DNA of 64,000 nucleotides from an uncultured cyanobacterium (GCA_963744145.1 CAVUSO010000001.1:5056001-5120000), one strand, 5' to 3'; counted from the stretch's first letter, positions 3,871-52,431 are shown. Notes: generated from the sequence alone by a model not told the origin. A program made the numbers and translations.

Positions 3871-5151
3871 ATGTCTAGTTCCCAACTTAAACGAGACTTG
3901 GGTCTGTTCGGTGCCGTGATGATGGGACTAGGTGCCATTATTGGTACAGGTGTTTTTGTCAGTATTGGAATTGCCGCGGGAATTGCTGGACCTGCGGTGA
4001 TTTTAGCAGTCGCGATCGCTGCATTAGTGGCAACTTGTAATGGTTTAAATAGCGCTCAACTCGCGGCTAATCACGCAGTTAGTGGGGGAACTTATGAATA
4101 TGGATATCATTATCTCACCCCAGCACTGGGTTTTACTGCCGGTTGGATGTTTTTAATTGCTAAATCAGCTTCCGCTGCTACCGCAGCTTTAGGTTTTGCG
4201 GGTTATTTTTTAAATTTTATCGGTTGGAGCGATCGCAGTTTATTAATTCCTTTAGCCCTCGGTGCGGTGTTGGGATTTACCTTAATTGTCCTCGGAGGTA
4301 TTAAACGTTCTAATTTTGCCAATATTGTGATCGTTTCAATTACCCTGCTGTCTTTAGCTTTCTTTGCGATCGCCGGATTACCCACCGTTACCCAAACCGG
4401 ATTAACCCATTTCACCCCCTTCTTTAATTCTACTCCATTAACTTCTATTCTCCATGCTAGTGCTTTAATGTTTGTCGCCTATAGTGGATATGGACGGATT
4501 GCTACTTTAGGGGAAGAAGTCCATGAACCTAAACGCACGATTCCGCAAGCGATAATTATGACCTTACTGATCACCATGCTGCTCTATATGGTAGTGGCGA
4601 TCGTGGCAGTTGGTGCAGTCGGAGCCACAGAAATGGAGTTGGCTACCCATCAGAAATTTGCTGCACCATTAGAATTAGTAGCAAGTCAGTTTAGCATTAC
4701 TGGTAGTTCTCAAATTATTGCCGTTGGTGCTATAACTGCCATGTTAGGGGTACTACTTAACTTAATTATCGGGTTATCGCGGGTAGTGCTAGCAATGGGT
4801 AGAAGAAGGGATTTGCCCCAGATATTCTCAAGATTAAATAACCAGGGAACAACTCCAAGTCTAGCTGTGATCTTGGTGGGAGTAGCGATCGCGGGTTTAG
4901 TCTTAATTGGTGATGTGAAAACTACTTGGTCTTTTAGTGCTTTTTCGATTTTAATCTACTATGCCATTACCAATTTAGCAGCATTAAACCTTTCGGCAGA
5001 AGCAAGACTTTATCCCCGTTGGGTGGGATGGATGGGGTTATCTAGTTGTTTACTATTGGCTTTTTGGGTCGAACGTGAGATCTGGATAACGGGTATTGGC
5101 TTAATCCTGGCTGGATTAATTTGGCATAAATTGAGAAAACTGCAAAATTGA
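3871..5151 (+). CDS. APC-family amino acid permease, copy 1
   Basis: LKRDLGLFGAVMMGLGAIIGTGVF, multi-TM, GEEVHEPKRTIPQA. Confidence 0.92.
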   Translation: MSSSQLKRDLGLFGAVMMGLGAIIGTGVFVSIGIAAGIAGPAVILAVAIAALVATCNGLNSAQLAANHAVSGGTYEYGYHYLTPALGFTAGWMFLIAKSASAATAALGFAGYFLNFIGWSDRSLLIPLALGAVLGFTLIVLGGIKRSNFANIVIVSITLLSLAFFAIAGLPTVTQTGLTHFTPFFNSTPLTSILHASALMFVAYSGYGRIATLGEEVHEPKRTIPQAIIMTLLITMLLYMVVAIVAVGAVGATEMELATHQKFAAPLELVASQFSITGSSQIIAVGAITAMLGVLLNLIIGLSRVVLAMGRRRDLPQIFSRLNNQGTTPSLAVILVGVAIAGLVLIGDVKTTWSFSAFSILIYYAITNLAALNLSAEARLYPRWVGWMGLSSCLLLAFWVEREIWITGIGLILAGLIWHKLRKLQN

Positions 5152-5168
5152 TAGTAAAGGGTTATTCT

Positions 5169-6449
5169 ATGTCTAGTTCTCAACTTAAACGGGACTTGGG
5201 TCTGTTTGGTGCCGTGATGATGGGACTAGGTGCCATTATTGGTACAGGTGTTTTTGTCAGTATTGGAATTGCCGCGGGAATTGCTGGACCTGGGGTGATT
5301 TTAGCAGTCGCGATCGCTGCATTAGTGGCAACTTGTAATGGTTTAAGTATCGCTCAACTTGCGGCTAATCATGCAGTTAGTGGGGGAACTTATGAATATG
5401 GATATCATTATCTCACCCCAGCACTGGGTTTTACTGCCGGTTGGATGTTTTTAGTGGCTAAATCAACTTCAGCTGCTACCGCAGCTTTAGGTTTTGCGGG
5501 TTATTTTTTAAATTTTATCGGTTGGAGCGATCGCAGTTTATTAATTCCTTTAGCCCTCGGTGCGGTGTTGGGATTTACCTTAATTGTCCTCGGAGGTATT
5601 AAACGTTCTAATTTTGCCAATATTGCGATCGTTTCGATTACCGTGCTGTCTTTAGCTTTTTTTGTGATCGCCGGATTAACCACCGTTACCCAAACGGGAT
5701 TAACTCATTTCACGCCCTTCTTTAATTCTACTCCATTAACTTCTGTTCTCCATGCTAGTGCTTTAATGTTTGTCGCCTATAGTGGATATGGACGAATTAC
5801 TACTTTAAGTGAAGAAGTCCATGAACCTAAACGCACGATTCCGCAAGCGATAATTATTACTTTACTGATCACCATGCTGCTCTATATGGTAGTGGCGATC
5901 GTGGCAGTTGGTGCAGTCGGAGCCACAGAAATGGAGTTGGCTACCCATCAGAAATTTGCTGCACCATTAGAATTAGTAGCAAGTCAGTTTAGCATTACTG
6001 GTAGTTCTCAAATTATTGCCGTTGGTGCTATAACTGCCATGTTAGGGGTGCTACTCAACTTAATTATTGGTTTATCACGGGTAGTGCTAGCAATGGCCAG
6101 AAAACAGGATTTACCCCAGATATTCTCAAGATTAAATAGCCAGGAAACAAGTCCAGATTTAGCTGTGATCTTGGTCGGAGTAGCGATCGCGGGTTTAGTC
6201 TTAATTGGTGACGTGAAAACTACTTGGTCTTTTAGTGCTTTTTCGATTTTAATCTACTATGCCATTACCAATTTAGCAACATTAAAACTTTCAGCAGAAG
6301 CAAGACTTTATCCCCGTTGGGTGGGATGGATGGGGTTATTTAGTTGTTTACTGTTAGCTTTTTGGGTCGAACCTGAGAATCTGGATGACGGGAATTGGAT
6401 TAATCCTGGCTGGATTAATTTGGCATAAATTGAGAAAACTGAAAATTGA
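5169..6449 (+). CDS. APC-family amino acid permease, copy 2 (+1 indel near 6378 alters the last TM)
   Basis: Near-identical tandem copy; gagaatctgg versus gagatctgg in copy 1. Confidence 0.88.
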
Positions 6450-29650: not shown

Positions 29651-29822
29651 ATGTATCAGAAAGCTTACGGAATTATTGAAACTTTAGCACCACTTCATAT
29701 TGGTGCAAGTGCCGGAGAAGAAACGGGAAATTTAAACTTGATTTTTCGTGATCAGTTTACCCAAACTGGTATTATTCCTGGTAGTTCAATTCGGGGACGA
29801 TTTCGTGCTGATATGCGATCGC
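29651..29822 (+). pseudogene. cmr4: 5' fragment of a second cmr4
   Basis: First ~57 codons nearly identical in protein to cmr4 at 51547; similarity stops at a HIP1 site. Confidence 0.85.
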
Positions 29823-29954
29823 GCTGTCTAAAACTGGAAGAAGAAATAGATGAAAATCTTTGGTATAGACTGACCTATTGCTTTAATGGTGCTGACTGTA
29901 TTTCATGGCGATCGCACTCCCTGGAAACGTCAAGGAGAAGACCGATTAAGACAA

Positions 29955-30078
29955 TAGACCTCTTGCAAAAGTCCTTATTGATCTATTTATTGACAGGCAA
30001 GATGCCTGTCCCATCAGAAAAAATCACTTTTGTGGGACAGGCATCTTGCCTGTCCTATTTATTTTTGCAAGAGGTCTA
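29955..30078. mobile_element. MITE with TAGACCTCTTGCAAAA terminal inverted repeats and an internal palindrome
   Basis: TIR at both ends; a lone copy of the end occurs at ~38083. Confidence 0.7.
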
Positions 30079-30155
30079 ATTTATTCAAGCAGTCAAGACA
30101 GCTTTAAATATCACCAGTCCCACTTGGGGATGATCACTGGAAAGGAGCCTAATTT

Positions 30156-31737: not shown

Positions 31738-31969
31738 ACTACCGAGTAGGATGAGAAGTGTTTGACTCGGTGAGAAACTGGTAGTAAAAAGCCGATTATG
31801 AAAGCTGAATGGGAATTTCCGATTGAAATAGTCATAGATTTTCTCCTATAAGTATTTTGACTTATGTAAAACTACTTTTACATTTACTATGATAATTAGT
31901 AAATATAAATCAATAACTTTTACAAACTGCCGAACGCCATCTAGCGCCTTCGGTAAGAGAGAATCAGCT

Positions 31970-33082
31970 ATGAAAGAGATCATTGCTCTTCACCTAACCC
32001 ACTACCGCAAAGGTCTAAACCTCTCTCAAGAGGAACTTGCATCCCTAGCGGGGGTAACTCGCCAGAGCATCCACAACTACGAGAATGGCAAAACCATACC
32101 CGATAGCAAAACCCTTTCGGCTCTTGCCCGTGCTTTGGGTGTTAAGCTAGATGATCTGCTACGGAAAGAAAGCACCTTGGCGTTACCAAACTTCCGGTTT
32201 CGCGCCCATACCACCTTCGACAAAAACCCCCAATTTGCAGCCCAAGTGCTGCGATTGTTAGAAGACTACATCGCACTAGAACAGGCAGTCGGCATTCCCA
32301 CATACACCCCAGAAAGCACCCCTTGTCACCAACTAGAAGGTAACGAAAAGCGAATTGCCGAAATTGCCACCCAGTTTCGCCACCGTTTGGGATTGGGAGA
32401 TGGCCCCATTCTGAATTTGTTTGAAGCTGTGGAAGAGACTGGTTTAAAAGCACTACGCCAGGATCTCCCAATTTCAGGGTTTTTTGGGCTGAGTGCCTGT
32501 AGTCTGGCTCAGGGAGCTTTCGTTTTAGTCAACAGCCATAACATCACCATCGAACGGCAGTTATTTACCCTGGCTCATGAAATTGGACACTTAATATTCC
32601 ATCGAGACGAGTATCAAGACAACTTGATAAAAGAAGGAACCAAAGAAGAAGAAAAAGCACGGGAAGCCGTTGCTAACCACTTTGCCAGTCATTTGCTAGT
32701 GTCTCAAGAGGCTCTAGAGCGAGCCTTAAATGTGTTCAGTAACGTAATTGAATTAAAAGCTCACTTCCGCGTCAGCTACACCATAATATTGATGCGACTA
32801 GAGCAAATGGGAAAGTTAAAGTATAGCGATGCCATTCAGAAAATACGTGGAGAATACAAGCGACAAACTGGAGAATCCCTTCCTAAAGAAAAAGAGATTG
32901 AGCCAACCTTAAGTTCTGAAGATTTTCCAGCCAACCAACGCTTTACTAAATTAGTTTGGCAAGCGCTTTGGGAGGGAAAAGTTTCAGAATTAAAAGCCGC
33001 AGAGTTACTTAATTTATCTGTTGATTCCTTGCGGCAGTCTCGTAAAGAAGCCAGGGTGTATGCTATCGATGCCATCTTCTGA
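31970..33082 (+). CDS. XRE HTH fused to ImmA/IrrE zinc metallopeptidase
   Basis: LSQEELASLAGVTRQSIHNYENG; FTLAHEIGH; EAVANHFAS. Confidence 0.9.
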   Translation: MKEIIALHLTHYRKGLNLSQEELASLAGVTRQSIHNYENGKTIPDSKTLSALARALGVKLDDLLRKESTLALPNFRFRAHTTFDKNPQFAAQVLRLLEDYIALEQAVGIPTYTPESTPCHQLEGNEKRIAEIATQFRHRLGLGDGPILNLFEAVEETGLKALRQDLPISGFFGLSACSLAQGAFVLVNSHNITIERQLFTLAHEIGHLIFHRDEYQDNLIKEGTKEEEKAREAVANHFASHLLVSQEALERALNVFSNVIELKAHFRVSYTIILMRLEQMGKLKYSDAIQKIRGEYKRQTGESLPKEKEIEPTLSSEDFPANQRFTKLVWQALWEGKVSELKAAELLNLSVDSLRQSRKEARVYAIDAIF

Positions 33083-33575
33083 AGGGCTGATTCTGGATGC
33101 TACAGCCCTGATTGACTTTTGCTGGTTGAATGAATGGGAATGGCTACAACAGCAGTACAGCCCTCTGTATATTGCCCAGGAAGTTTTGGACTCGGATCGG
33201 CTAGAAGTAGCAACAAAGGAAGCTGCTATGCACTACCTGGAACCCATTGCCCTCAATACTGAAGAGATGTTTTTGAGTTTCATGGAGTTTCGGATTAAAG
33301 CACCGCTACTCAGTGAAGCCGATCGCTCTACTTTAGCTTTAGCTCGTCACCGCTTCTTATTGTGCGTCAGTGATGACAGACGGATGATTGAGGTTTGTGA
33401 AGAGTACGGCATAGCTTATATTCGGATGCTGCGATTATTGAGCCAAATGGTACAGACCGGACATAGGACAGTTGAAGAGGTCATAGAGATGGCCGATACC
33501 TTAGTCAACGAGCGAGGGAAATGGATTGCACAAACAATTTTGTCAAGCTGGAAGCGCTCATTACTTAACTTCTAA
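33069..33575 (+). CDS. PIN-domain protein (DUF3368-like)
   Basis: LILDATALID, LSEAD, VSDD; overlaps the XRE-IrrE gene. Confidence 0.75.
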   Translation: MPSSEGLILDATALIDFCWLNEWEWLQQQYSPLYIAQEVLDSDRLEVATKEAAMHYLEPIALNTEEMFLSFMEFRIKAPLLSEADRSTLALARHRFLLCVSDDRRMIEVCEEYGIAYIRMLRLLSQMVQTGHRTVEEVIEMADTLVNERGKWIAQTILSSWKRSLLNF

Positions 33576-33812: not shown

Positions 33813-35302
33813 CTACGGTGTACACACAAGTTGAGATAGAGTAAGGAGAGAAGGGAAGTAAGGAGAAAAAAGTAGTGGAAAATCCAATTTTAATTCATGT
33901 GCAACAATGTGAGAGAACAGCATTCGGAGATCCAAGACTGGGAAAAAGAGGGGCTTCATTGTATGCAGCAATGGCACAACATCAATCAGTAAATATTCGG
34001 AAAATCAGTAAAAATCGAGCCGAGCAAGTTGGATATTACCGATTTTTAGGGAATGAGAATGTAAAAACTGGAGAATTAGTCGTAAGTTTAGGAGAGCATT
34101 GCGCCTTACAGGTAGATGGAAAACACCACGTCTTAGCGATAAGTGATAGTAGTGAAATTAACTTAGAGTCTCACAAAGGGAGATTGAAATCCGAGGGAAT
34201 TGGAGTAGTAGGAAACAATCAAGATATCGGATTTTATATTCATCCCACACTGGTATTAGATGCAGAAAATGGATTCCCACTTGGATTAAGTACAGTGCAA
34301 TTGTGGACAAGAGAACCTGACCATCAGGATCAGCATGAAAGAAAATATAAAAACTTACCGATTGAAGAAAAAGAATCCTATAAATGGCTCAAGTCAGCCG
34401 CTCAAACCCGCACCTGTTTCAGCTGGTCTAATATGAAAATGGTGACTCATATAGGCGATCGGGAAAGCGATATATTTGAAGAATTTGTCAGAGTACCTAA
34501 TCAACAGCATCATCTCTTAATTAGAGTCGGACAGAACCGTCGGCTCAAAGAGCAGTCTGAGTCTCTGTATACCTATTTAAGTCAGCAACATTGTGAAGGA
34601 ACTTATGCCATTGAAGTCCAGGCTGACTCACGGGTTGGACGAACAGCGAGAGAAGCATTCATGTTAGTACGTTGTGCCCTCGTTCAAATTCAGCGTCCTG
34701 AGCATTTATCTGCCGCAGATTATCCAGAAAGTGTCAATCTTTACGCAGTGGAAGCTGTAGAAGTCAATCCACCAAAAGGTCAACAACCGATTCACTGGCG
34801 ATTACTCACTACACATAGAGTAGTTTGTATTGAACAAGCATTACAAGTAATTGAATGGTACAAATGGCGCTGGCGGATTGAACAACTGTTTGCTACCCTC
34901 AAATCCGTTGGCTTAGATCTCGAAGCAACTCAATTAGAGTCAATTAAATCTATTCAAAAATTGTGTGTTTTAGCTTTATCGGTAGCTGTCAGAATTTTGC
35001 AGTTAATTGTCGGGCGTGACCAGCCTGAATTACCTGCAACCTACGCATTCAATGATGAACAACAGCAATGTTTATCCCAGATTGCTCCCACTGTTTCCGG
35101 ACCAACTTTAGCACAACAAAATCCTTATCCACCTCATTCTTTACCTTGGGCAACTTGGATTATTGCTCGACTGGGTGGTTGGTCTGGCTATCGGTCTCAA
35201 AAACCGCCAGGAATTACTACTTTAGTGCGCGGACTAAGCCAATTTCAATCCTTTTTTGATGGCTGGAAACTCGCTCTAGGTATGGTTGTGTGTACACCGT
35301 AG
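33813..35302 (+). mobile_element. IS4-family (IS50/Tn5-like) insertion sequence
   Basis: TIRs ctacggtgtacacacaa / ttgtgtgtacaccgtag; 11-bp target duplication ccctaggaggg at 33802-33812 and 35303-35313. Confidence 0.92.
33875..35302 (+). CDS. IS4-family transposase
   Basis: FGDPRL, DRESD, YKWRWRIEQLFATLK (YREK-like), IARLGGW. Confidence 0.92.
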   Translation: MENPILIHVQQCERTAFGDPRLGKRGASLYAAMAQHQSVNIRKISKNRAEQVGYYRFLGNENVKTGELVVSLGEHCALQVDGKHHVLAISDSSEINLESHKGRLKSEGIGVVGNNQDIGFYIHPTLVLDAENGFPLGLSTVQLWTREPDHQDQHERKYKNLPIEEKESYKWLKSAAQTRTCFSWSNMKMVTHIGDRESDIFEEFVRVPNQQHHLLIRVGQNRRLKEQSESLYTYLSQQHCEGTYAIEVQADSRVGRTAREAFMLVRCALVQIQRPEHLSAADYPESVNLYAVEAVEVNPPKGQQPIHWRLLTTHRVVCIEQALQVIEWYKWRWRIEQLFATLKSVGLDLEATQLESIKSIQKLCVLALSVAVRILQLIVGRDQPELPATYAFNDEQQQCLSQIAPTVSGPTLAQQNPYPPHSLPWATWIIARLGGWSGYRSQKPPGITTLVRGLSQFQSFFDGWKLALGMVVCTP

Positions 35303-35610
35303 CCCTAGGAGGGAAGGGGGAGAAATAGCTCACTAATTTTACTTGGGTTTCTGCTGATAATTCTGACTCCCCTTTCCTCTTAGGAGAGGGGTTGGGGGAG
35401 AGGTCTATTGCTGCGATCGCTCCCATTTCTCCTCATAATTCTGACTCCCCTTTCCTCTTAGGAGAGGGGTTGGGGGAGAGGTCTATTGCTGCGATTACTT
35501 CTATAATACTCTCATGCTTAAGCTTTACATAAAATTGAGATTAGGAAAACGCCCTTTCCTTAAATAAACCATAATTGCGTTCAATGTTTCTCTGAGCAGA
35601 CAGCGCAATT

Positions 35611-36606
35611 ATGTCAAAAAAATTTCCCACCAATAGCGATCGAGATGTTTTATCAACATCCCTGGTTGAAGAGTTTCTGAGTTTAGCCAATTTTCAGCGA
35701 GCCTGGGAAAAGGTAGCTTTCAATAAAGGTAGTGCTGGGATTGATGAAGAAACGATCGATAAATTTAAGCAGAATTTAAAAGCAAATCTTTCTCAATTGA
35801 GAGAATCTGTTGCTAATAGTACCTATCAAGCACTTCCCTGTAAACAAGTTTTAATCCCTAAAAATCAAGACAGTTGGCGAGAATTAAGAATTCCGGCTGT
35901 TAGAGATAGAATTGTTCAGCAAGCTTTATTAAATGTTCTTGCTCCAGTCTGGGAAAATAAGTTTTCTAAGTCTAGTTTTGCTTATCGTCCAGATTTATCT
36001 TACTTAGATGCTGTTGAAGAAGTCGCTCGCTGTCGAGATTTAGGTTATGTATGGGTACTGGATGCAGACATCACTCAATATTTTAATAATATTGACCACC
36101 AAAGGTTATTGAGAGAAGTTAGAAAGCACATCGATAATCCAGGGATTCTCTGTCTGATTAAATCTTGGATTTCTACTGAAATCGCCACAGAACAGGGAGT
36201 GATTAGAAATGAAAAAGGAATTCCTCAAGGTGCTGTGATTTCGCCTTTATTAGCTAATATTTACTTGGATGAGTTTGACCATTTTTTCTCTGATTCTGAG
36301 TTGCAGTTAATCCGTTATGCTGATGATTTTTTGGTATTAGCTTACTCCCGAGAGCAAATTGTTCAAGCTTATTCAGAAGTAAACCGATTACTCAAATCAA
36401 TGGGATTAGAGCTACATTCTGAGAAAACTCAGATTACCAGTTTTGAGCGGGGATTTCGATTTTTAGGTCATGGTTTTTTAGAAAATGCTATTTTTCCTTT
36501 GGAGTCTGCTAAAACTCAGCAGAAGTTAGTATCAGGAGAAAGTAATGGTAAAAAAAAAGTCTCCTGCTCGAAACAGAAAAGGAAACGGAAGCGGCATCTG
36601 CGTTAA
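35611..36606 (+). CDS. CRISPR-associated group II intron-like reverse transcriptase
   Basis: IPAVRDRIVQ, SFAYRP, GIPQGAVISPLLANIYL, RYADD, FLG; immediately upstream of cas1. Confidence 0.93.
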   Translation: MSKKFPTNSDRDVLSTSLVEEFLSLANFQRAWEKVAFNKGSAGIDEETIDKFKQNLKANLSQLRESVANSTYQALPCKQVLIPKNQDSWRELRIPAVRDRIVQQALLNVLAPVWENKFSKSSFAYRPDLSYLDAVEEVARCRDLGYVWVLDADITQYFNNIDHQRLLREVRKHIDNPGILCLIKSWISTEIATEQGVIRNEKGIPQGAVISPLLANIYLDEFDHFFSDSELQLIRYADDFLVLAYSREQIVQAYSEVNRLLKSMGLELHSEKTQITSFERGFRFLGHGFLENAIFPLESAKTQQKLVSGESNGKKKVSCSKQKRKRKRHLR

Positions 36607-37697
36607 GTCTTTCTCCGGTAGCTTCTACCCCTTTAGAGGTGGTTAAATCTGAGGGTTTTGAGGATGCTTCTAAAAATATTTGGAACAAGAACATGGCTAC
36701 TATTTATTTAATTGAACAAGGAACGGCGGTTTATAAAGAAAATTTGCGGTTTGTGATTTGGGTTTCTGATGAAGAAAGAAAAGAAATTCCCATTCGAGAA
36801 GTGGAAAGAATTCTGGTGTTTGGTAATATCCAAGTTTCAACTCAAGCGATAAATGCTTGTCTGGAAGAGAAAATCATCATTCTATTTTTAAACCGGTCCG
36901 GGCACTATAAAGGTCATCTTTGGAATTGGGAACATACCCATTTAGCTAATGAATTATTGCAAATTCAAAAATGGCAAAATATGCCGTTTCAATTACAAGT
37001 TTCTCAAGCAATTGTTCGCGGAAAGTTACTGAACTCGAAGCAATTATTGTTAAGGTTAAACCGGAAACGGAAAGTAGCAGAAGTTGCCCGGGCGATCGCG
37101 GGTATTAGTTCTGATATTAACACTCTGACGACAGTTGATAATCTTGATAGTTTACGGGGTTATGAAGGTATTGGTGCCGCCCGATATTTTCCAGCATTTG
37201 GTAAATTAATTACTAATTCTGGGTTTAAATTTTCTCTACGAAACCGTCAACCTCCCACCGATCCTGTTAATTCTTTATTAAGTTTTGGCTACACCCTTTT
37301 ATTTAATAATGTTTTGAGTTTAATCGTAGCTGAGGGTCTGTCTCCTTATTTTGGTAATTTCCACTATGGAGAAGATAAAAAACCCTATCTGGCTTTTGAC
37401 CTGATGGAAGAGTTTCGATCGCCGATTGTTGATGGTCTGGTGATCAAATTAATCAATAGCTCGGTTTTCAAGCCTACTGACTTTGAATTTGTTGCTAGCA
37501 CACAAGGAGTTTATTTAAGACATTCTGCTAGACGAGGGTTTCTCGAACAGTTTGAAAAACGTATGAATGAAGAAGTTTCTCATCCTGATTTACAATCGCA
37601 AGTTTCTTATCGAGAGGCTATTCAATTGCAGGTTCGACGCTACAAACGTAGTCTGTTACATGGGCTTGACTATGAACCTTTTTTGAGAACGATATAA
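36552..37697 (+). CDS. cas1: Cas1 (stand-alone start probably ATG 36693; the frame is open back to 36552 and may fuse to RT)
   Basis: LRGYEG..YF, DPVNSLLSFGY, H..LAFDLMEEFR..D. Confidence 0.95.
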   Translation, partial: KKSLLLETEKETEAASALSLSPVASTPLEVVKSEGFEDASKNIWNKNMATIYLIEQGTAVYKENLRFVIWVSDEERKEIPIREVERILVFGNIQVSTQAINACLEEKIIILFLNRSGHYKGHLWNWEHTHLANELLQIQKWQNMPFQLQVSQAIVRGKLLNSKQLLLRLNRKRKVAEVARAIAGISSDINTLTTVDNLDSLRGYEGIGAARYFPAFGKLITNSGFKFSLRNRQPPTDPVNSLLSFGYTLLFNNVLSLIVAEGLSPYFGNFHYGEDKKPYLAFDLMEEFRSPIVDGLVIKLINSSVFKPTDFEFVASTQGVYLRHSARRGFLEQFEKRMNEEVSHPDLQSQVSYREAIQLQVRRYKRSLLHGLDYEPFLRTI

Positions 37698-37713: not shown

Positions 37714-37986
37714 ATGGTGGTTGTAGTGTACGACATTCCCGATGATAAAAGACGCACCAAGTTGTCTAATTTTCTAGAGGGCTATGGGACAAGAGTTCAG
37801 TGGTCTGTGTTTGAGTGTTTTATCACCTTAGACGAGATGCGAGTGTTACATGAGAAGGTGAAAAAACTTGTCAAGTCAGCGGAAGATGATGTTCGTTTCT
37901 ACTGGCTCTCTCCTGAAGCTGGGTCAATGGTTTTAACTATTGGTAGCGAAAAGCCTCAACCTCCCCCAAAGTATTATGTAATCTAG
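37714..37986 (+). CDS. cas2: Cas2
   Basis: VVYDIPDDKRR..GYGTRVQWSVFEC. Confidence 0.95.
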   Translation: MVVVVYDIPDDKRRTKLSNFLEGYGTRVQWSVFECFITLDEMRVLHEKVKKLVKSAEDDVRFYWLSPEAGSMVLTIGSEKPQPPPKYYVI

Positions 37987-38921: not shown

Positions 38922-41900
38922 CCCTACCGATGGGCTTAAATCGGACTAGTTGGAAACCATTCGGACTTCCCAGGACCTAGGTGCCTTGCAATCCATCCCT
39001 ACCGATGGGCTTAAATCGGACTAGTTGGAAACCCTGTGTCGTGACAATCCATACAGTGACCATTCTCCGTGCCCTACCGATGGGCTTAAATCGGACTAGT
39101 TGGAAACGAGAAATTGCTGCACAAATAATTCCCTAGGGAACCCTACCGATGGGCTTAAATCGGACTAGTTGGAAACTTTCCTAAGAAACGTCCGTCGATG
39201 TCAGTTTTTGACTTTCCCTACCGATGGGCTTAAATCGGACTAGTTGGAAACGACCAAATTGGATAAACCTCTCCAATTTGGTAGTACCCTACCGATGGGC
39301 TTAAATCGGACTAGTTGGAAACGCGCATTAAACACTGCCTTTTGGCAGTTTCCGTTTATGGTGCCCTACCGATGGGCTTAAATCGGACTAGTTGGAAACA
39401 ATGTCATATCGTTCCTGGATGGGCATGGGATTTTTGAGCTGCCCTACCGATGGGCTTAAATCGGACTAGTTGGAAACGTTGCCTTTTGGCAGTTCGAATT
39501 GACGGTGACGCCACCGGCCCTACCGATGGGCTTAAATCGGACTAGTTGGAAACAAAGCGACGCCAACACCAACACAAGAAGCAACATTTTTGACCCTACC
39601 GATGGGCTTAAATCGGACTAGTTGGAAACACAACGACAGGATGTCGCCCGGAAGGGCAGCTAACTTGCCCCTACCGATGGGCTTAAATCGGACTAGTTGG
39701 AAACCTGGCGTCAACGCTGTGCGCGCCTTGTTGTTGGTCGCCCTACCGATGGGCTTAAATCGGACTAGTTGGAAACCTAACTCGTCATACAGACCAGCAG
39801 CCCGGAAGGTTGCTAGCCCTACCGATGGGCTTAAATCGGACTAGTTGGAAACGGAATTATTCCGCTTGTCGTAGTTAAAAATTACACCACCCTACCGATG
39901 GGCTTAAATCGGACTAGTTGGAAACGCCCAGAACCAAAGAAAACATTAACAAAGCGGAAACCCTACCGATGGGCTTAAATCGGACTAGTTGGAAACCCGT
40001 GAACATCGGGGCAGACGTAGGTGTCCCCCCCTTTACCCTACCGATGGGCTTAAATCGGACTAGTTGGAAACACAAGCGGGGCGCCCCTGTGAGTCCTTAG
40101 GGCACTCTTCCCCTACCGATGGGCTTAAATCGGACTAGTTGGAAACTTTTTTGATTGAGCGGATAACACCCTGGCGGGTGCTTCCCTACCGATGGGCTTA
40201 AATCGGACTAGTTGGAAACTTTTTTGGGCAGGACCGGTTTACCGTCTGGCCCCAACCCACCCTACCGATGGGCTTAAATCGGACTAGTTGGAAACCGACC
40301 TCCCTTTCGGTCAACCACCACGGGGCCCTACCGATGGGCTTAAATCGGACTAGTTGGAAACTGCTGGTCTTGGGAACAACCGTAGACGGTGTTCCCCCTA
40401 CCGATGGGCTTAAATCGGACTAGTTGGAAACCTGTAGTCTTGAACATAAGCTGGGTGTTGTGCGACCCTACCGATGGGCTTAAATCGGACTAGTTGGAAA
40501 CTTGCAATCGTCGAGGACCTGCTGCTGTCTGACCCTACCGATGGGCTTAAATCGGACTAGTTGGAAACCCCCAAAACCTCGATAGAGGAGGTAAGGTAGG
40601 GTAGTTTTAACCCCCTACCGATGGGCTTAAATCGGACTAGTTGGAAACCGACCGTCACGCTCCTCAATGATTATGGAGCCCTCCCTACCGATGGGCTTAA
40701 ATCGGACTAGTTGGAAACCAGTCGAGGCTGTGGGGTGCGTTCTTTGCAGCCGTCGAGGCCCTACCGATGGGCTTAAATCGGACTAGTTGGAAACGTCCAA
40801 GTGCCCCCGAGGATATCGCATTGTGCTTTAGTTGCCCTACCGATGGGCTTAAATCGGACTAGTTGGAAACCTTTCGCTTAAGTTGGTGTAGGTAGGGGAA
40901 AACCCTACCGATGGGCTTAAATCGGACTAGTTGGAAACTATATACGATGAGGTGAGGACCATCTCCGCTATTGACCCTACCGATGGGCTTAAATCGGACT
41001 AGTTGGAAACTTTCCGTCAGACGAGCATTCCGTTTCCGCTACCTTCCCTACCGATGGGCTTAAATCGGACTAGTTGGAAACCTGTCGGCAGCGTTGAAAT
41101 TGAAGTATCCAACACACCCCTACCGATGGGCTTAAATCGGACTAGTTGGAAACGTATTGTTGCTAAGGAGCAACTTATAACGTACCCCGCCCTACCGATG
41201 GGCTTAAATCGGACTAGTTGGAAACTCTTCTGGTCAACCACAACAGGGTGTTGCCCTGTTGGACAACCCTACCGATGGGCTTAAATCGGACTAGTTGGAA
41301 ACTATATTAGCTACAAAAAGACTTGCAGCCGAAAAAGCAGAACCCTACCGATGGGCTTAAATCGGACTAGTTGGAAACGACATCGTGTGCGCCCGACTGT
41401 TGGTCGGGGTTACACCCCTACCGATGGGCTTAAATCGGACTAGTTGGAAACACCGTTATGGTGGTGTGGATGTGCTGGTCTGGCAACTGGCCCTACCGAT
41501 GGGCTTAAATCGGACTAGTTGGAAACTGGCAGGTTGGCCCGCCATCGATGCTGTGTACCGCCCTACCGATGGGCTTAAATCGGACTAGTTGGAAACGACA
41601 TCGAACCTTATGATGCCCAGCGGGGCGATGGCAGCCCTACCGATGGGCTTAAATCGGACTAGTTGGAAACTTACAGGCTAGATCAAGTGTCGCGGGTGCT
41701 TAGGACCCTACCGATGGGCTTAAATCGGACTAGTTGGAAACTTTTTAGCAGACATATTTTTTCGTCCTTAGATAAAAGCCCTACCGATGGGCTTAAATCG
41801 GACTAGTTGGAAACGCTCGGTGCACCATGCTTCTGTCACATCTTGGGCCGTGCCCTACCGATGGGCTTAAATCGGACTAGTTGGAAACTTTTACGTATCT

Positions 41901-43362
41901 CTCACTCATCATTGAGTGATATACGCCCTACCGATGGGCTTAAATCGGACTAGTTGGAAACGACTGACTGTTGGAAGTCAGGTACTGTCCCGCCCCTACC
42001 GATGGGCTTAAATCGGACTAGTTGGAAACTTTTTACAGGTTCCCAAGGCTTCCCCGTTGGAGTCCTTCCCTACCGATGGGCTTAAATCGGACTAGTTGGA
42101 AACAGTACAGAAGCAACAGCAACACCGATACCAACAATAACACCACCCTACCGATGGGCTTAAATCGGACTAGTTGGAAACTTTATCGAGACGCCACCGG
42201 TGGCGTCTATATCGTGCGACCCCTACCGATGGGCTTAAATCGGACTAGTTGGAAACTTTATCGGGGGTGGGATGGCAAACGATCACTTTGCCCCTACCGA
42301 TGGGCTTAAATCGGACTAGTTGGAAACGCGAGGTTGCAGTCAGTATCGTACCACTGCACTCCACCCCTACCGATGGGCTTAAATCGGACTAGTTGGAAAC
42401 GTCTGACAGCTCTTGCCGTCAGCGGAACACTCGGTTTCCGCCCTACCGATGGGCTTAAATCGGACTAGTTGGAAACTTTTCTCCTATCCCCGTTAGCCTA
42501 GATCATTAGCTTTACTTCCCTACCGATGGGCTTAAATCGGACTAGTTGGAAACTCTGTCTTTCCGTTAGCGGTCCAGGTACCGCCTACCCTACCGATGGG
42601 CTTAAATCGGACTAGTTGGAAACAGGTTATTGTTGCTACGAAGTTTAAGGAATTGAAAGATCCCTACCGATGGGCTTAAATCGGACTAGTTGGAAACCAA
42701 ACAAAGTCGCAGAAGAATCGAATACAAAGCCCTACCGATGGGCTTAAATCGGACTAGTTGGAAACCCTTGACTACAGCGGCAGCAGCAGCAACACCAAGC
42801 AAAGCCCTACCGATGGGCTTAAATCGGACTAGTTGGAAACGCAATAGCAGCAAGGGCTAGAAGGGCTAGTAGAGCAACACCCTACCGATGGGCTTAAATC
42901 GGACTAGTTGGAAACTTGAAAGCGCCGCTTCAGCTCTGGTGAGCTGTTTGGCCCTACCGATGGGCTTAAATCGGACTAGTTGGAAACGCTGTAAAAGGAC
43001 TCCACGGCCAGCGTTGTTATCCCTACCGATGGGCTTAAATCGGACTAGTTGGAAACCTACGGCAACAGCAACAACAAACAATTTGATAGAAGACCCCTAC
43101 CGATGGGCTTAAATCGGACTAGTTGGAAACTAGAGCATCCCGCTCTTCAATTAGGAGCGTTCCTTTCTTCCCCACGCCCTACCGATGGGCTTAAATCGGA
43201 CTAGTTGGAAACAAGGGACGGTTGGACCAAATGCTGGGAAATCTACCAACCCTACCGATGGGCTTAAATCGGACTAGTTGGAAACGTGTACAGTTCAGCC
43301 TTAATCGCTGCTATTGCAGCTTTAGGCCCTACCGATGGGCTTAAATCGGACTAGTTGGAAAC
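38922..43362 (+). CRISPR. CRISPR array of ~61 copies of the 36-bp repeat CCCTACCGATGGGCTTAAATCGGACTAGTTGGAAAC, ~60 spacers of ~30-46 bp
   Basis: Manual count; the 3' GAAAC end and the upstream leader indicate + orientation. Confidence 0.98.
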
Positions 43363-44934: not shown

Positions 44935-45040
44935 AGCTCTGATGTCCTGTGCATAAGTGATGAGGTTTATTCTCTCATCCCTATGGAAAGGGAGGTTTCC
45001 AAAGCCTGTTAATTTGGAAAAGGAACTGAGCGGGATTAAC

Positions 45041-46507
45041 ATGATGTTTGGTAAAACCTTTGATTTGTGCCCCAGTGTAGACCTGTTACAAGTGCTAGCA
45101 AGAGGTTCTTTGAGACAAAATTTGCCAAAAGCAGTGCGGTTATGGGTCCTATTGCGATCGCTGTACGGGGATGAAGCTGATCCCATGCGGTTGGATCTGG
45201 GTGAAAATTTTACTTACAGTGAGTGGAACAAACTATTTTTTAATCTAACCAATCATGAACATAAAAATTACAAAATTCCGACTGATCACGATCCCCAGTG
45301 TCATTGTGCTAAAACAATTAGTGATTGGTTATTCGATTCTAATATGGGTTGTGATCCTACAACATGGCAACATTCATTCTTACAACTTTATTCTATGTCT
45401 CAACCCGAATTAGATAGCTTGCTGTTATCGGGAATTATCAATAAAGACGGAGAAAATTCCAACAAGCAAACACCTCTACCAGGTGGTCGTTTATTTGCGA
45501 TCACGAGTAAAAATATTCAATATGATTTTGGAGCATTGGTGGAAATGGGATGGCTAAAAATTCAGAAAATAACAAGTTGTAATAGTAAAAGATGTAAAAC
45601 TCTCTATTGTCGCGTAGAAGATTTTCCGAATCTTGGTATTTATCCCAATCCTCCTATTGCTCAATCGGAAATTAAAGTCAGTAATGTTATTCAAAATGAC
45701 CTGGCTGATTTTTTTAATGATTTCGGAGGTGAAATTAATGGTAAACAGCGCTTCTTTTTAGATATTGAGTATATTGTTCCTGCAAATTTTTCCCAGCAAA
45801 TTAACACCATCAGACAACAACTGAAAGAAGTTTGGCAGCAATCAATAGTACCACCGATAAAAATAACATATATCAGTGCTAGAAATTATCAAAGCTATCA
45901 AGATGAAGGAGAAGAATATATTGTTTATCCAGTTTGCATCTATTATTCCCATCGCGCACCTTATTTATTTAGCTTTGGTCAAGATCCTGTAAATAAAGGT
46001 AAAATTGGCTGGTATGATTATCGATTAGACCGAATACAGAAATTAGAACAACTAACCTGGGATCAAGTTAAAATTGCCGATTTCTCTGAACAGATTTGTC
46101 AGGGAAAAACACCAAGTCATATTGAAGACTTAAGAAATGAAGCGTGGGGATTTGATTTTTACAAACCAAAAAAGTTAATGCTGTTGCGATTCGATCGCTA
46201 TTTTCATAATCGCTATATTGAGGGAACTGAACGGGAAAAAAGATTTCAGAAAATTCCTTACAGATATGCTAAAAGTCTGGTGGAACAAGAACCAATTGAC
46301 AGTGAACTTAAACAGCAAACTTTAGCGATTTTCAAGTCTCGTTCGACCACAGATATTTATTGTCGAGTTAATTATCGTGTAGATGATAATAATGTGATTA
46401 TGAGATTGAGAGCGTGGGGTGCTATGGTAGAAGTATTTTTACCTTGGGAATTGCGATCGCTGATGGCTAAAGAAATTGAAGATAATTACCATCTTTATCA
46501 TAATTGA
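45041..46507 (+). CDS. CRISPR-associated WYL-type regulator (TIGR03985-like)
   Basis: LQVLARGSLRQNLPKAVRLWV, YPVCIYY, YRLDRI, MRLRAWG..VEV. Confidence 0.8.
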   Translation: MMFGKTFDLCPSVDLLQVLARGSLRQNLPKAVRLWVLLRSLYGDEADPMRLDLGENFTYSEWNKLFFNLTNHEHKNYKIPTDHDPQCHCAKTISDWLFDSNMGCDPTTWQHSFLQLYSMSQPELDSLLLSGIINKDGENSNKQTPLPGGRLFAITSKNIQYDFGALVEMGWLKIQKITSCNSKRCKTLYCRVEDFPNLGIYPNPPIAQSEIKVSNVIQNDLADFFNDFGGEINGKQRFFLDIEYIVPANFSQQINTIRQQLKEVWQQSIVPPIKITYISARNYQSYQDEGEEYIVYPVCIYYSHRAPYLFSFGQDPVNKGKIGWYDYRLDRIQKLEQLTWDQVKIADFSEQICQGKTPSHIEDLRNEAWGFDFYKPKKLMLLRFDRYFHNRYIEGTEREKRFQKIPYRYAKSLVEQEPIDSELKQQTLAIFKSRSTTDIYCRVNYRVDDNNVIMRLRAWGAMVEVFLPWELRSLMAKEIEDNYHLYHN

Positions 46508-48499: not shown

Positions 48500-50272
48500 G
48501 TGAGTCAAATATATACTGCGATCACCTTTGCCCCAGTGCAAAGTTTTATTGAAAAATCCCGTAAATTGCGAGATTTATATGGGAGTTCATTTATCTTATC
48601 CTACTTAGCCGTGGAAATTTGTAGAGCAGCTAGGCGCGATCGCAATGTTCCAGAAGATAATCCCCCTCCGGAAATTGACCCGATCATCTCACCAGCACTC
48701 ATCAACGTCACTCAAGGGACGCCTAATCAAATAATTATTCGAGGAGATTACAAAAAAGATAACGCTGAAACCGCCTTTGCTGAAGCTTGGGATGCAGTGA
48801 TAGAAGGTTGTCGTCAGTGGATCGAAGACAATGTTAAAACTTGTGGGCAGTATTACTGGAGGAGGAACTGGGATGGGTGGAAACATCATGCTTGGGAGTT
48901 TTTTTGGGGACAAGGACAAAATATCGGTGAAGCAAGGAATGCGGTTAATGAAGCCAAGCGATCGCGCAATTGGATAGCAATAAACTGGGTAGGAGAAAGT
49001 TCGACTTTATCTGGTGCCGATGGGGTCGCGTGGCCAGGTTTAGGCAAGAATAATCCGAAGTATTCTAATTACCAGCAGCAAAAATTGGAGATTGAAGGTT
49101 TTTATCAGCGACTAAGTTTGAAACTGGGAGAAGCTTTTGCAGAAGCCGCAAATCTCAATGTAGATGAAGAAAAGAAAAAAGAATATGGTGCGGCGTTTGT
49201 TGACCCTGATGAAGAATTAAGCATACCTGAATTAGTGAAGCGGTTAATTACGCATCTAGCGATCGCTGAGAGAATTGTCGCGCGATTGAAACAACCAATT
49301 ACTAAAAGAGAACTTAAAGAAAGGTTGAAGCAACTGAGTGAAGAACTAAATCCCGATAGTTTTAGAGATTTAAGTCGCTTAAAACACAAAAATAAAAAAG
49401 CCCAGACATCAGTCCCAGAATATTATACTGGTTGGTTTCAGGGAGACGGCGATCGCATGGGCGATTTAATGAAAAGACTCTCTAACGAGGACAATCCTGA
49501 AATTGAAGCCCAAGAACTTCATAAATTTAGTCGGGCGATGATGAAATGGGGAGAAAAAAACTTCAAGCCCAACCTGAATGCTTCTAACGGTCGTACAGTT
49601 TATGCTGGTGGTGATGACTTTCTTGGGATTTTTTACCCCTTACCAAAAAATCCGTCACAAAAGCAGCAATTTATCCCTCTGACCGGACAAGATTGCATCA
49701 ATTGGTTTTATGAATTTCCCGCTCTTTGGAAACAGCACAAACAACCCGTAAGTGTTAGTGTTGGATTTGTCTGGGCAGCACCCAATGTACCACAAAGAGA
49801 CGTTTTACAGCACTGCCATTCAGCTGAATCTTCAGCAAAAAAGAGTGGCAAAGACCGTATTGCATTGCGGGTGCTATTTAACGGTGGTACTCATATAGAA
49901 TGGGTATGTCCTTGGTGGTTTTTAGAAGTATTAAAACACTATCAAGATAGAGATGGCAACACTTTAAAATCTTTGTCAAAAGGGAATAAAACTAAACCAA
50001 ACTGGACTCACCTTTATAACGATGTTGCTACTTTAGAATCGCGCCACGCATTTTACGGTAATACTAAAATTGCCCAAGCACTCTTTCAAATTTATTTTCC
50101 TGAGTGCAAGGATTTTATTCACCATGATTATTGGTGGGTACATTGCTATAGAGATGAATTGAGAACGGGCATTTTAGGACATGAACAAAAAAATGCCAAA
50201 AAAGATGTTACTGAACTGTTTAACGAATGGGTTATTAACTTAGCAAAAGTAGGATTTCACTTATGCACATAA
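48500..50272 (+). CDS. cas10: Cas10/Cmr2 lacking an HD domain, cyclase palm intact
   Basis: PVQSFIEKSRKLRDLYGSS, GDGDRMG, YAGGDD. Confidence 0.95.
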   Translation: MSQIYTAITFAPVQSFIEKSRKLRDLYGSSFILSYLAVEICRAARRDRNVPEDNPPPEIDPIISPALINVTQGTPNQIIIRGDYKKDNAETAFAEAWDAVIEGCRQWIEDNVKTCGQYYWRRNWDGWKHHAWEFFWGQGQNIGEARNAVNEAKRSRNWIAINWVGESSTLSGADGVAWPGLGKNNPKYSNYQQQKLEIEGFYQRLSLKLGEAFAEAANLNVDEEKKKEYGAAFVDPDEELSIPELVKRLITHLAIAERIVARLKQPITKRELKERLKQLSEELNPDSFRDLSRLKHKNKKAQTSVPEYYTGWFQGDGDRMGDLMKRLSNEDNPEIEAQELHKFSRAMMKWGEKNFKPNLNASNGRTVYAGGDDFLGIFYPLPKNPSQKQQFIPLTGQDCINWFYEFPALWKQHKQPVSVSVGFVWAAPNVPQRDVLQHCHSAESSAKKSGKDRIALRVLFNGGTHIEWVCPWWFLEVLKHYQDRDGNTLKSLSKGNKTKPNWTHLYNDVATLESRHAFYGNTKIAQALFQIYFPECKDFIHHDYWWVHCYRDELRTGILGHEQKNAKKDVTELFNEWVINLAKVGFHLCT

Positions 50273-51546
50273 CATCAACATCTATCGCAGAGGAAAAAAA
50301 ATCAGAAAATCCGCCATTTTCCCACATAATTGTGATTAAACCGTTAGGATTTCTCTATGGCAGTGCTGGAAAGTTTTTATCACCAGAAAACTTAGTCGGA
50401 CGTTCTGGAACTAGCTTTCCTCCTAGTGCTGCCACTTTATCAGGTATTTTTGCGGCTTCCTTACCGCCCGATAAAATCAAAAATTTGCAGTTGGCTGGGC
50501 CTTTTTGGGCATGGAGTCACAATCCGCAAAATTTTTATGTTCCTACTCCTTTTAATTGCTTAGTCAAGGATAAAAAAATTCATCAGCAAATCGCGTGGTT
50601 CCAACAATGTAAAGATCCATGTAAAGGACGATGGTTAGCACAATTTAGGGTGTGGCAAAAGATCAATGGAGAGTTAGTAGGGTTAGATTTATATAAAACA
50701 CCACCTAATGATAAGTTTGAAAGCAAAACTTGGTTACCAATCAGACATTGGAAACGAATAAGACATAAAATAAATAAAGATAAAAACTTATTCAAGGAAA
50801 CCATACCCCAAGAAGAAAATTGCTTTCCTCAACTTAAAGTTGAATCACCCCCTTGGGAATTTGTCCCTCACCTGCACCCGCGACTACAAGAGGATCAAAG
50901 ACGAGTTATAAAGCCTGAAGAAGAACGAGAAAGGGGCAGTTTATTTTTAGAAAACGGAGTGCAATTAAATCCCGATGCGTGCTTAGTTTATTTGTCAAAT
51001 ATTTCTATTCCCGATGGTTGGTATCGGTTTGGTGGTGAAGGTCATTTAGTAGATTTGCGTTGTGAGAATATATGCCAAACTGTTACTGATTTACTCAAAG
51101 AAAAGTTAGGGCACAGTTTTGCATTAATCACTCCAGCAGTATGGGGTTCTAATCGGCTGTCTTACCGCGAACCAATGGTACAGGAAAATCAGGATAAAAA
51201 TGGTGAGTGGGTTCCTGCTTGGAAACGGGAAGCTTTACTGACAGAACGTAGTATCCCTTTCCGTTATCGCTTAGGAAATCCTCAACAATCGGCAGAAGGT
51301 GAGAAACGAAAAAGTAATGAAAAATTGCTGTCTCGCGGACGGTATGCGATGCCAGCAGGCAGTGTTTATGTGTTAGAAAAACCTCTCCCATCTTGGCAAG
51401 AATGGGATAAAGATTGGTTTCCCAAAGAAGGTGTTTCATTTAAACGTTGGGGTTGTGGGCTATCGTTACCTTTGGAAAGCGCACTTGTTCAAGAGTCAGA
51501 TCCACAAACAGCTAATACTTCTGAAATTTCCCTAGGAGATAATTAA
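50263..51546 (+). CDS. cmr3: Cmr3 (Cas5 group)
   Basis: PLGFLYGS, FPPSAAT, FGGEG, PAGSVY, WGCG. Confidence 0.88.
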   Translation: MHITSTSIAEEKKSENPPFSHIIVIKPLGFLYGSAGKFLSPENLVGRSGTSFPPSAATLSGIFAASLPPDKIKNLQLAGPFWAWSHNPQNFYVPTPFNCLVKDKKIHQQIAWFQQCKDPCKGRWLAQFRVWQKINGELVGLDLYKTPPNDKFESKTWLPIRHWKRIRHKINKDKNLFKETIPQEENCFPQLKVESPPWEFVPHLHPRLQEDQRRVIKPEEERERGSLFLENGVQLNPDACLVYLSNISIPDGWYRFGGEGHLVDLRCENICQTVTDLLKEKLGHSFALITPAVWGSNRLSYREPMVQENQDKNGEWVPAWKREALLTERSIPFRYRLGNPQQSAEGEKRKSNEKLLSRGRYAMPAGSVYVLEKPLPSWQEWDKDWFPKEGVSFKRWGCGLSLPLESALVQESDPQTANTSEISLGDN

Positions 51547-52431
51547 ATGTATCACAAAGCTTATGGAATTATTGAAACCTTAGCCCCTTTACATATTGGA
51601 GCGACAGCAGGAGAAGAAACAGGAAATTTAAACTTGATTTTCCGCGATCAGTTTACCAAAACTGGGATTATTCCCGGTAGTTCAATTCGAGGAAGATTTC
51701 GCGCTGATATGCGATCACAAAATGGGAAAGTTTCTGAATGGTACGGTCACGAAGCGGTTGCAGGACAACAAGATGGCGGCACTACGGAAGCATCAGTTAA
51801 ATTTGAATATGCGTCTTTAGTATGGTTACCTGTTTTTTGTCCAGGTCAACCGATCGTTTGGGTAAGTTGTCCTTCACTGCTAAAACGTTACCAGCAAATC
51901 ACTCAAATTGATCGCAAGATCGATATTCCCAAACCTTACACGGCTGATCATGGATTAGAAGCGCGGTTAGTACCAGGAACAACTGAAAAAGTTTTATTCT
52001 TTAACTTGGGTTTTTTAGGGATTGAACATCAGGAAAATTTAGCCGTTTGGATTCCGATCGGTGCTGACTTACCTAAAAAACAATTAGTTGTTGTTGATGA
52101 TAACGATATCTCTATGCTGCATGATATGGCTTTGTATCGTCAAAGTCGTATTAAGATGCTGGATAATATGAAGAAAGTAGATACAAGAACGGGTGCTTTT
52201 TTTAATGTAGAAGCCTTGCCCGTTGGTAGTATTTTAGTGTTTCCAATAGCATCAAAACAATTCGGCTGGCAACCCTTTGGCAACCTGCAAAAAGATAAAA
52301 ATTATTCTCAAGAACTGTATTTTGGGGGATTAGAATCAATTGGATTTGGTCGGTGTAATGTAACCCTGGTAGGAGAAGCACTTGATCAGCCAGAAAATAT
52401 TCAAGCAACTACACAGGAGGTTAATAGCTAA
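51547..52431 (+). CDS. cmr4: Cmr4 (Cas7 RAMP)
   Basis: PLHIGA, IPGSSIRG, FGGLESIGFG. Confidence 0.92.
   Translation: MYHKAYGIIETLAPLHIGATAGEETGNLNLIFRDQFTKTGIIPGSSIRGRFRADMRSQNGKVSEWYGHEAVAGQQDGGTTEASVKFEYASLVWLPVFCPGQPIVWVSCPSLLKRYQQITQIDRKIDIPKPYTADHGLEARLVPGTTEKVLFFNLGFLGIEHQENLAVWIPIGADLPKKQLVVVDDNDISMLHDMALYRQSRIKMLDNMKKVDTRTGAFFNVEALPVGSILVFPIASKQFGWQPFGNLQKDKNYSQELYFGGLESIGFGRCNVTLVGEALDQPENIQATTQEVNS

Follow-up and report, generated by a model that had tools for sequence, protein, structure and literature searches.

A conserved run of adenines as a candidate recoding signal between the reverse transcriptase and cas1 genes of cyanobacterial CRISPR operons

In a clade of cyanobacterial CRISPR adaptation operons, the genes for a reverse transcriptase (RT) and for Cas1 meet at a run of eight to ten adenines, after which cas1 most often continues in the -1 frame. 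The conservation of this run, and the coding constraint on the stretch which follows it, indicate a real and deeply conserved recoding signal in the gene pair. It is very probable that an RT-Cas1 fusion is made from these genes, by whatever route. That the slip is transcriptional, made by RNA polymerase, is held with less assurance, but is the reading towards which the evidence leans. The parts of such a system are known, whilst their combination is apparently unreported.

The RT-cas1 junction and its surroundings

The junction was followed up in a 64,000-nucleotide stretch of DNA from an uncultured cyanobacterium (GCA_963744145.1, CAVUSO010000001.1:5056001-5120000), here called the window. 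Positions are counted from its first nucleotide.

35611..36606 (+): RT open reading frame, 331 aa; CRISPR-associated reverse transcriptase (TIGR04416, 299.8 bits)
36533..36566 (+): 7-bp inverted repeat spanning the A-run, arms 36533-36539 and 36560-36566; incidental
36534..36538 (+): AGGAG, resembling a Shine-Dalgarno (SD) sequence; present, incidental
36549..36558 (+): candidate slip site T-A9, the A9 itself at 36550-36558
36552..36692 (+): acidic linker, open in the cas1 frame between the run and the Cas1 Met, with 45 codons past the run
36693..37697 (+): cas1, 334 aa from its own ATG (TIGR00287, 286 bits)
37714..37986 (+): cas2 (TIGR01573)
38922..43362 (+): CRISPR array, 61 identical 36-nt repeats and 60 unique spacers
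44957..46507 (+): TIGR03985 CRISPR-associated (WYL-type) gene
48500..52431 (+): type III-B-like effector genes, cas10/cmr2 to cmr4
48500..50272 (+): cas10/cmr2, 79.5 bits against a cut-off of 79.4
51547..52431 (+): cmr4, 74 bits, under its cut-off of 87

The RT is group II intron-like and lacks the thumb/X domain, its match to TIGR04416 covering profile positions 3-271 of 353. A YADD motif lies at RT positions 236-239 and is kept in 79-80 of the 80 clade loci covered there, and a short basic tail extends past the A-run. The RT frame reads the A9 as three Lys codons. The cas1 frame, at -1 relative to RT, has a TAA at 36549-36551, beyond which it stays open over 36552-37697. The positions given in the earlier note for the A9, the TAA, the AGGAG and the inverted arms are all correct. 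With RT adjoining cas1 and accompanied by cas2, a CRISPR array and type III effector genes, the locus has the arrangement of RT-CRISPR-5.

Several other features of the window and its genome were recorded. The array spacers (38922-43362) have 50% G+C against 39% for the genome, and a search of the host genome with the 60 spacers gave no full-length match and partial matches of 17-23 nt for three. A second, distant RT (27% identity) lies in the same genome at G000:C1 5012209-5012826, and three more cas1 genes (30-36% identity) are found elsewhere in it. At 29651-30079 the window carries a second, truncated cmr4, which shares 88% identity over 173 nt with the full gene at 51547 and directly precedes a TIGR02221 (Csx1-like) gene; the region resembles a scar left by rearrangement of a type III locus. 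An XRE-HTH/metallopeptidase-like regulator followed by a small PIN-like gene (PIN by eye, with no family hit) occupies 31889-33575 and is likely a toxin-antitoxin pair. After it, directly upstream of RT, comes an IS4 copy (33875-35302), and short purine/pyrimidine-rich dispersed repeats, recurring elsewhere in the genome, lie at 35300-35490. Finally, an APC-family amino-acid permease gene is duplicated head to tail at 3871-5151 and 5148-6428, the copies being 95.4% identical over 1260 nt.

Conservation of the run and of the linker

Searches of 41 and of 401 genomes supplied relatives, as did scans of genome contigs and of metagenome contigs, the best 80 matches being taken from each scan, so that locus totals are lower bounds. 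From at least 202 loci, 10 were dropped for want of an RT hit, 10 for want of the RT end, 28 as duplicates and a further 45 because the cas1 start could not be located, so that 109 remained. These are split by a tree of RT residues 1-296 and Cas1, with the linker left out, into 81 loci (the clade) and 28 (the outgroup), with FastTree support of 1.0 and a branch of 0.38. Among the matches listed, named members of the clade belong to the Nostocales, Oscillatoriales, Chroococcales and other groups. Gloeothece citriformis PCC 7424 and Fischerella PCC 9431 are among the strains in culture which have the site. The RT is interrupted by a stop, a frameshift or a contig edge in six of the 81 clade loci.

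All 81 clade loci, among the matches listed, carry a run of A8 to A10 within the RT reading frame, beyond which cas1's frame is open; the run was chosen as one with an open frame after it, and every locus had one. All 28 outgroup loci are plain in-frame fusions; their longest run is seven, and none has A8-A10. The clade loci are kin, so these counts are not independent trials. Within the clade, cas1 lies at -1 relative to RT in 60 loci, in frame in 19 and at +1 in two, both of them tips, and runs are seen in codon phases 0, 1 and 2. The -1 register holds while the distance from the RT end to cas1 varies between about 130 and 470 nt. Out of sample, A9 or A10 and the -1 register recur in three of three complete RefSeq plasmids bearing RT-cas1-cas2, from Gloeothece PCC 7424, Microcystis NIES-2481 and Nostoc N6, where the pair is annotated as two genes; a fourth RefSeq hit is a truncated RT without cas1. 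Of the 45 loci set aside for want of a cas1 start, eight are clade-like: four have the run, two end or break before its site, and two (L068 and L103) have lost both the run and a nearby cas1. The other 37 have no run. A truncated clade-like RT among those lacking the RT end (L077) is likewise without it, and an orphan RT that has an internal frameshift and lies more than 4 kb from any cas1 (L079) still carries T-A9.

The earlier note had proposed asking whether orthologous pairs keep an out-of-frame A-run, and the 60 clade loci at -1 do so. It had also cautioned that a one-base homopolymer deletion in an error-prone assembly, masking a plain in-frame fusion, would look identical. Natural A10 fusions do exist. 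Against this, the same run and register recur in 60 loci from many genera and in the three RefSeq plasmids, and conservation across the clade effectively excludes the deletion. Nor does the assembly appear error-prone where it could be checked: its five 1428-bp IS4 copies are gapless and the 61 array repeats are identical over 36 nt. An assembly artefact is thus scarcely credible.

The host genome holds 20 runs of nine or more As with at least 100 open codons on either side, and only that between RT and cas1 joins different frames. A scan of the genome for other out-of-frame junctions at A8 or longer found nine further A8 cases with no shared context.

On the tree the register changes state 17 times, against 19.3 when shuffled, with -1 at the root and the in-frame and +1 states as scattered tips. 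In-frame A10 alleles stand beside A9 sisters (L057 with L109 and L058; L031 with L083), and natural A10 alleles encode intact fusions of 713 and 728 aa. Such alleles, together with the 19 in-frame loci and the roughly 17 changes, are what would be expected were the run a contingency site for phase variation in DNA, the fusion being made only in cells mutated to A10. Yet 60 of the 81 loci stand in what would be the 'off' register, inferred to be ancestral, whilst their linkers are under steady purifying selection, and DNA phase variation is accordingly considered improbable. Retention of the run in in-frame members was weighed as proof of selection and set aside as weak, these being mostly recent tips. 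Three loci (L075, L076 and L127) form a well-supported small in-frame clade which keeps A9 in two different codon phases; theirs is a dnaX-like layout, in which slippage would truncate and not fuse. In L033 and L025 the linker has a second A8 run downstream of the first, after which the cas1 frame is open too, so that the two may possibly be tandem slip sites.

The linker between the run and the Cas1 Met reads as coding sequence. In the 49 of the 60 -1 loci which stay below 80% junction identity, here the non-redundant set, its 3238 codons read in the cas1 frame contain no stop, and the two remaining frames contain 174 and 239. Past the RT stop the counts are 0 against 123 and 209 (2556 codons). 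The TAA at the run is the nearest upstream cas1-frame stop in 53 of the 60 -1 loci. Over 17 hand-picked close pairs dN/dS is 0.43 for the linker, against 0.10 for Cas1 and 0.13 for RT. Free of stops in the cas1 frame and with this dN/dS, the linker is likely translated, and is predicted to be so in the fusion only. A Trp just ahead of the Cas1 Met is found in 79 of the 81 clade loci and in 20 of the 28 outgroup fusions. An upstream start for Cas1, at the GTG at 36639, was considered and rejected: it leaves the open linker unexplained, and 23 of the 60 -1 loci have no ATG, GTG or TTG in the linker at all. In five loci (L004, L033, L072, L075 and L078) linkers contain, by eye, units which resemble the dispersed repeats upstream of RT and are apparently translated in frame.

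The central proposal of the earlier note, that RT and Cas1 are joined by a programmed frame change at the A9, thus finds strong support in the presence of the run in all 81 loci and in the coding constraint on the linker.

Constraint at the run and the machine that slips

To judge from the codons used there, the constraint at the run is on nucleotides. Three Lys codons are kept in frame in each of the 60 -1 loci, whose 52 A9 cases share one phase. Of these 180 codons 178 are AAA, whereas over 12 Lys columns conserved in RT and Cas1 the share is 72%. Although the codon before the run specifies Ser, Arg, Gly, Thr, Ala or Cys, its third base is T in 63 of the 64 phase-0 A9 loci; none of 93 conserved four-fold columns exceeds 0.89. 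T-A9 or A10, that is ten A:T pairs, is present in 59 of the 60 -1 loci. The heptamer A_AAA_AAG occurs in two of them (L189 and L190), and A_AAA_AAA in the window and 57 others. In 19 of 64 clade loci the base after the run is C.

These figures bear on the possibility that no fusion is made, RT and Cas1 being separate products of a gene fission and the run persisting through descent, as a terminator or for the sake of a Lys-rich RT tail. In its favour, every one of the 81 loci has a separate ATG for Cas1, RefSeq annotates two genes, and such cases have been attributed to secondary fissions (Silas 2017, PMC5513706, in its accessible text). Constraint on the peptide would, however, permit AAG, which makes up 28% at conserved Lys columns and 2 of 180 codons here, and the linker past the RT stop is open in one frame only. 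No hairpin abuts the run, and the two clade-like loci without a nearby cas1 have lost it. Separate products alone are therefore quite improbable, more so than phase variation. The want of a conserved hairpin speaks against an antisense terminator at the minus-strand T9 as well.

The earlier note had likened the junction to -1 ribosomal frameshifting of the dnaX or IS type, with an upstream SD-like sequence and a flanking inverted repeat. This part of the proposal found no support: both elements are private to the window genome and no 3' structure is conserved. AGGAG or GGAGG lies 4-22 nt upstream in one of the 60 -1 loci, the window; among control windows 2% have it. Of the same 60 loci the window alone has the 7-bp inverted repeat, with a null of about 1.9%. 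Both are incidental, being no more frequent than chance. Hairpins upstream of, downstream of and across the run have mean folding z-scores from 0.03 to -0.26, none of them conserved, and for a 3' stem-loop, under pseudoknot-free folding, mean z is -0.02 and -0.12 (49 loci), with values of -0.35 and +1.17 for the window.

In ribosomal -1 frameshifting, tandem Lys-tRNAs might slip on A_AAA_AAA, or the ribosome slide along three AAA codons, giving the same fusion from an unchanged mRNA. The peptide at the junction is predicted to be identical whether the ribosome shifts by -1 or the transcript has gained an A. The three in-frame Lys codons in all 60 -1 loci are what this route would require, the -1 direction dominates over +1 by 60 to 2, and L189 and L190 have the canonical A_AAA_AAG. 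The host carries both Lys tRNAs, CTT and TTT. Having both lessens the advantage of A_AAA_AAG. Weighing against the ribosome are the SD in a single locus, the mean z near zero for 3' structure and the conservation of two As and a T upstream of the heptamer, of which tandem slippage has no need. In E. coli A_AAA_AAA is a weaker -1 site than A_AAA_AAG (Atkins 2016, PMC5009743), and ribosomes were found to slide only slightly on A9 or A10 in vitro (Koutmou 2015, PMC4363877). Moreover, avoidance of such runs in host genes, described below, is independent of phase and includes T9. A ribosomal slip is on these grounds unlikely, although it is the least so of the alternatives to a slip by RNA polymerase.

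In host open reading frames A9 is depleted to a like degree in all three phases, with observed-to-expected ratios (O/E) of 0.22-0.29 (3197 long ORFs, synonymous shuffles), and T9 is depleted as much (0.19). Runs of ten are absent from the long ORFs, where 54 and 29 were expected, and nine As encode Lys-Lys-Lys in 12 of its 199 occurrences against an expected 52%. T-A9 is the most avoided 5' context, with 6 against 45 expected (4605 ORFs; p=0.012 against C/G), a figure to which TpA bias contributes, T-A7 having an O/E of 0.76. Comparison of strand mirrors, on small counts, gives 0.13 for T-A9 against 0.29 for T9-A, and 0.15 for A-T9 against 0.28 for A9-T; that an A or T on the 5' side is more avoided than its mirror speaks against DNA phase variation. 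Before C, both A9 and T9 are depleted in host coding sequences beyond other 3' contexts (4 against 30 and 1 against 14).

The motif kept at the RT end is thus one which is purged elsewhere in the genome, by a process blind to phase. The conservation of T-A9 or A10 in the clade, taken with its removal from host genes in all phases, favours slippage by RNA polymerase. Nine is the usual threshold for such slippage, Thermus thermophilus dnaX slips on A9, and Nostoc IS elements with 8-10 As are described (Baranov 2005, PMC1088944, in the text accessible). The RNA-DNA hybrid measures 9-10 bp, and slippage mainly adds As (Atkins 2016, PMC5009743); the ten A:T pairs in 59 of the 60 -1 loci match this length. 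Nine As are retained, though tandem tRNA slippage needs seven, no SD or hairpin is conserved, and all three registers and phases occur. Variable direction has been assigned to transcriptional realignment (Antonov 2013, PMC3711429), but this argument is weak here, as there are just two +1 loci, both from binned assemblies. It should also be said that avoidance of A9 and T9 in host genes, measured on small counts, fits DNA-polymerase slippage as well, and that the three in-frame Lys codons kept in all 60 loci would be required by a ribosomal route too.

Proposed role and relation to known systems

In the proposed mechanism, RNA polymerase would slip on T-A9 or A10 and add an A in part of the transcripts. 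Those with the extra A would be translated into an RT-linker-Cas1 fusion, predicted at 695 aa in the window, whilst unslipped mRNA would yield free RT with its short basic tail, an open reading frame seen in the sequence. The tails of clade RTs are basic, with 444 Lys or Arg in 954 residues. Cas1 is probably produced alone as well, from its own ATG, free Cas1 being plausible in that the ATG is kept in 81 of 81 loci, though with no clear SD.

Slippage would then set the share of RT-bearing Cas1 subunits in the four-Cas1/two-Cas2 integrase, and this share in turn the balance between RNA- and DNA-derived spacers; tuning of the two is the likely purpose. The mixed pool could limit the number of RT arms per integrase, much as dnaX slippage sets tau to gamma. 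A four-Cas1/two-Cas2 heterohexamer with a thumb-less RT has been described, in which RT and Cas1 communicate and an RT helix can block a Cas1 site (Wang 2021, PMC8102632, in the accessible text). An ancestral -1 state, with in-frame alleles that are for the most part recent, suggests that the mixture of products is itself under selection. The whole picture, of an operon yielding free RT, free Cas1 and RT-Cas1 to build mixed integrases with a tunable number of RT arms, with single-base changes flipping lineages between a fusion made by slippage and one truncated by it, and with the ratio serving as a dial between RNA and DNA memory, is put forward tentatively, as somewhat short of evenly probable.

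Among constitutive in-frame fusions, the RT-Cas1 and Cas6-RT-Cas1 integrases of Marinomonas and Thiomicrospira (PDB 7KFT) likewise combine a thumb-less RT, a linker, Cas1 and Cas2 with a type III system, and for one natural A10 fusion from the clade the Cas6-RT-Cas1 of 7KFT is the best relative of solved structure. The clade fusion, by contrast, would account for part of the output only, the rest being free RT and probably free Cas1, and has no Cas6 domain. T. thermophilus dnaX (tau/gamma) offers the closest likeness in mechanism, a bare run of nine As which needs no stimulator and at which slippage sets the ratio of long to short subunits of one complex. There, however, the full-length form is the default, whereas the clade is mostly the reverse (60 of 81), with 19 loci in frame as in dnaX; moreover, slippage is demonstrated for dnaX and for the clade is inferred from sequence. 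In Shigella mxiE and in IS elements with A8-A10, including IS of Nostoc PCC 7120, slippage is also needed to fuse overlapping reading frames, the product being a virulence regulator or a transposase and not a CRISPR adaptation enzyme. With E. coli dnaX and the IS3-type elements, which use -1 ribosomal frameshifting, the clade shares an A-rich site and the -1 direction; it does not conserve the A_AAA_AAG, the upstream SD or the 3' structure by which they are defined.

The nearest known case of non-canonical expression in cas genes is the internal translation of Cas11 within cas8 or cas10d. No report of recoding at the RT/cas1 run was found in the open literature, the scope of the search. Frameshifting and slippage do not occur in the accessible main texts of Toro 2017 (PMC5541045), Silas 2017 (PMC5513706), Toro 2018 (PMC6013744) or a 2021 review (PMC8632793), and in PMC6753606 and bioRxiv 2024.03.12.584598 frameshift refers to broken genes or constructs. 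CRISPR, cas1 and reverse transcriptase are absent from the main text and two supplements of Antonov 2013 (PMC3711429), whose file 1 may list the cluster. The accessible part of a ribosome-profiling preprint on Synechocystis (10.64898/2025.12.20.695498) reports prfB frameshifting only.

The enzymes concerned have been catalogued before. RT-CRISPR-5 was defined to hold the cyanobacterial RT and RT-Cas1 of type III systems, and in the accessible text Rivularia PCC 7116, Crinalium PCC 9333 and Cyanothece PCC 7424 appear as RT alone (Toro 2017, PMC5541045). The last of these, now Gloeothece, has an RT (WP_012599795.1) 65.7% identical to that of the window, standing before cas1-cas2 with A10 and the -1 register. 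It is placed in the clade by identity alone, clade RTs being at 58.5% and above and outgroup RTs at most at 56.8%. On the comparison of this one of the three listed members, the clade is the 'stand-alone RT' part of RT-CRISPR-5, and RTs listed there as standing alone are read here as conditional fusions. Since slippage likely yields some fusion-encoding messages, these enzymes are probably part-time RT-Cas1 fusions.

Were this correct, it would become directly testable whether RT must be tethered to Cas1 for the capture of RNA spacers, and on how many of the four subunits, with A9, A10 and AAG-interrupted alleles of the operon of one cultured strain as a ready-made series. Those building RNA-recording tools would also gain compact RT-Cas1 candidates and a ratio open to tuning. 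A CRISPR-Cas gene family would join the few cellular genes in which programmed recoding is known. In a widespread cyanobacterial clade the 'stand-alone' RTs, until now explained as fissions and annotated in databases as one of two genes, would become conditional RT-Cas1 fusions.
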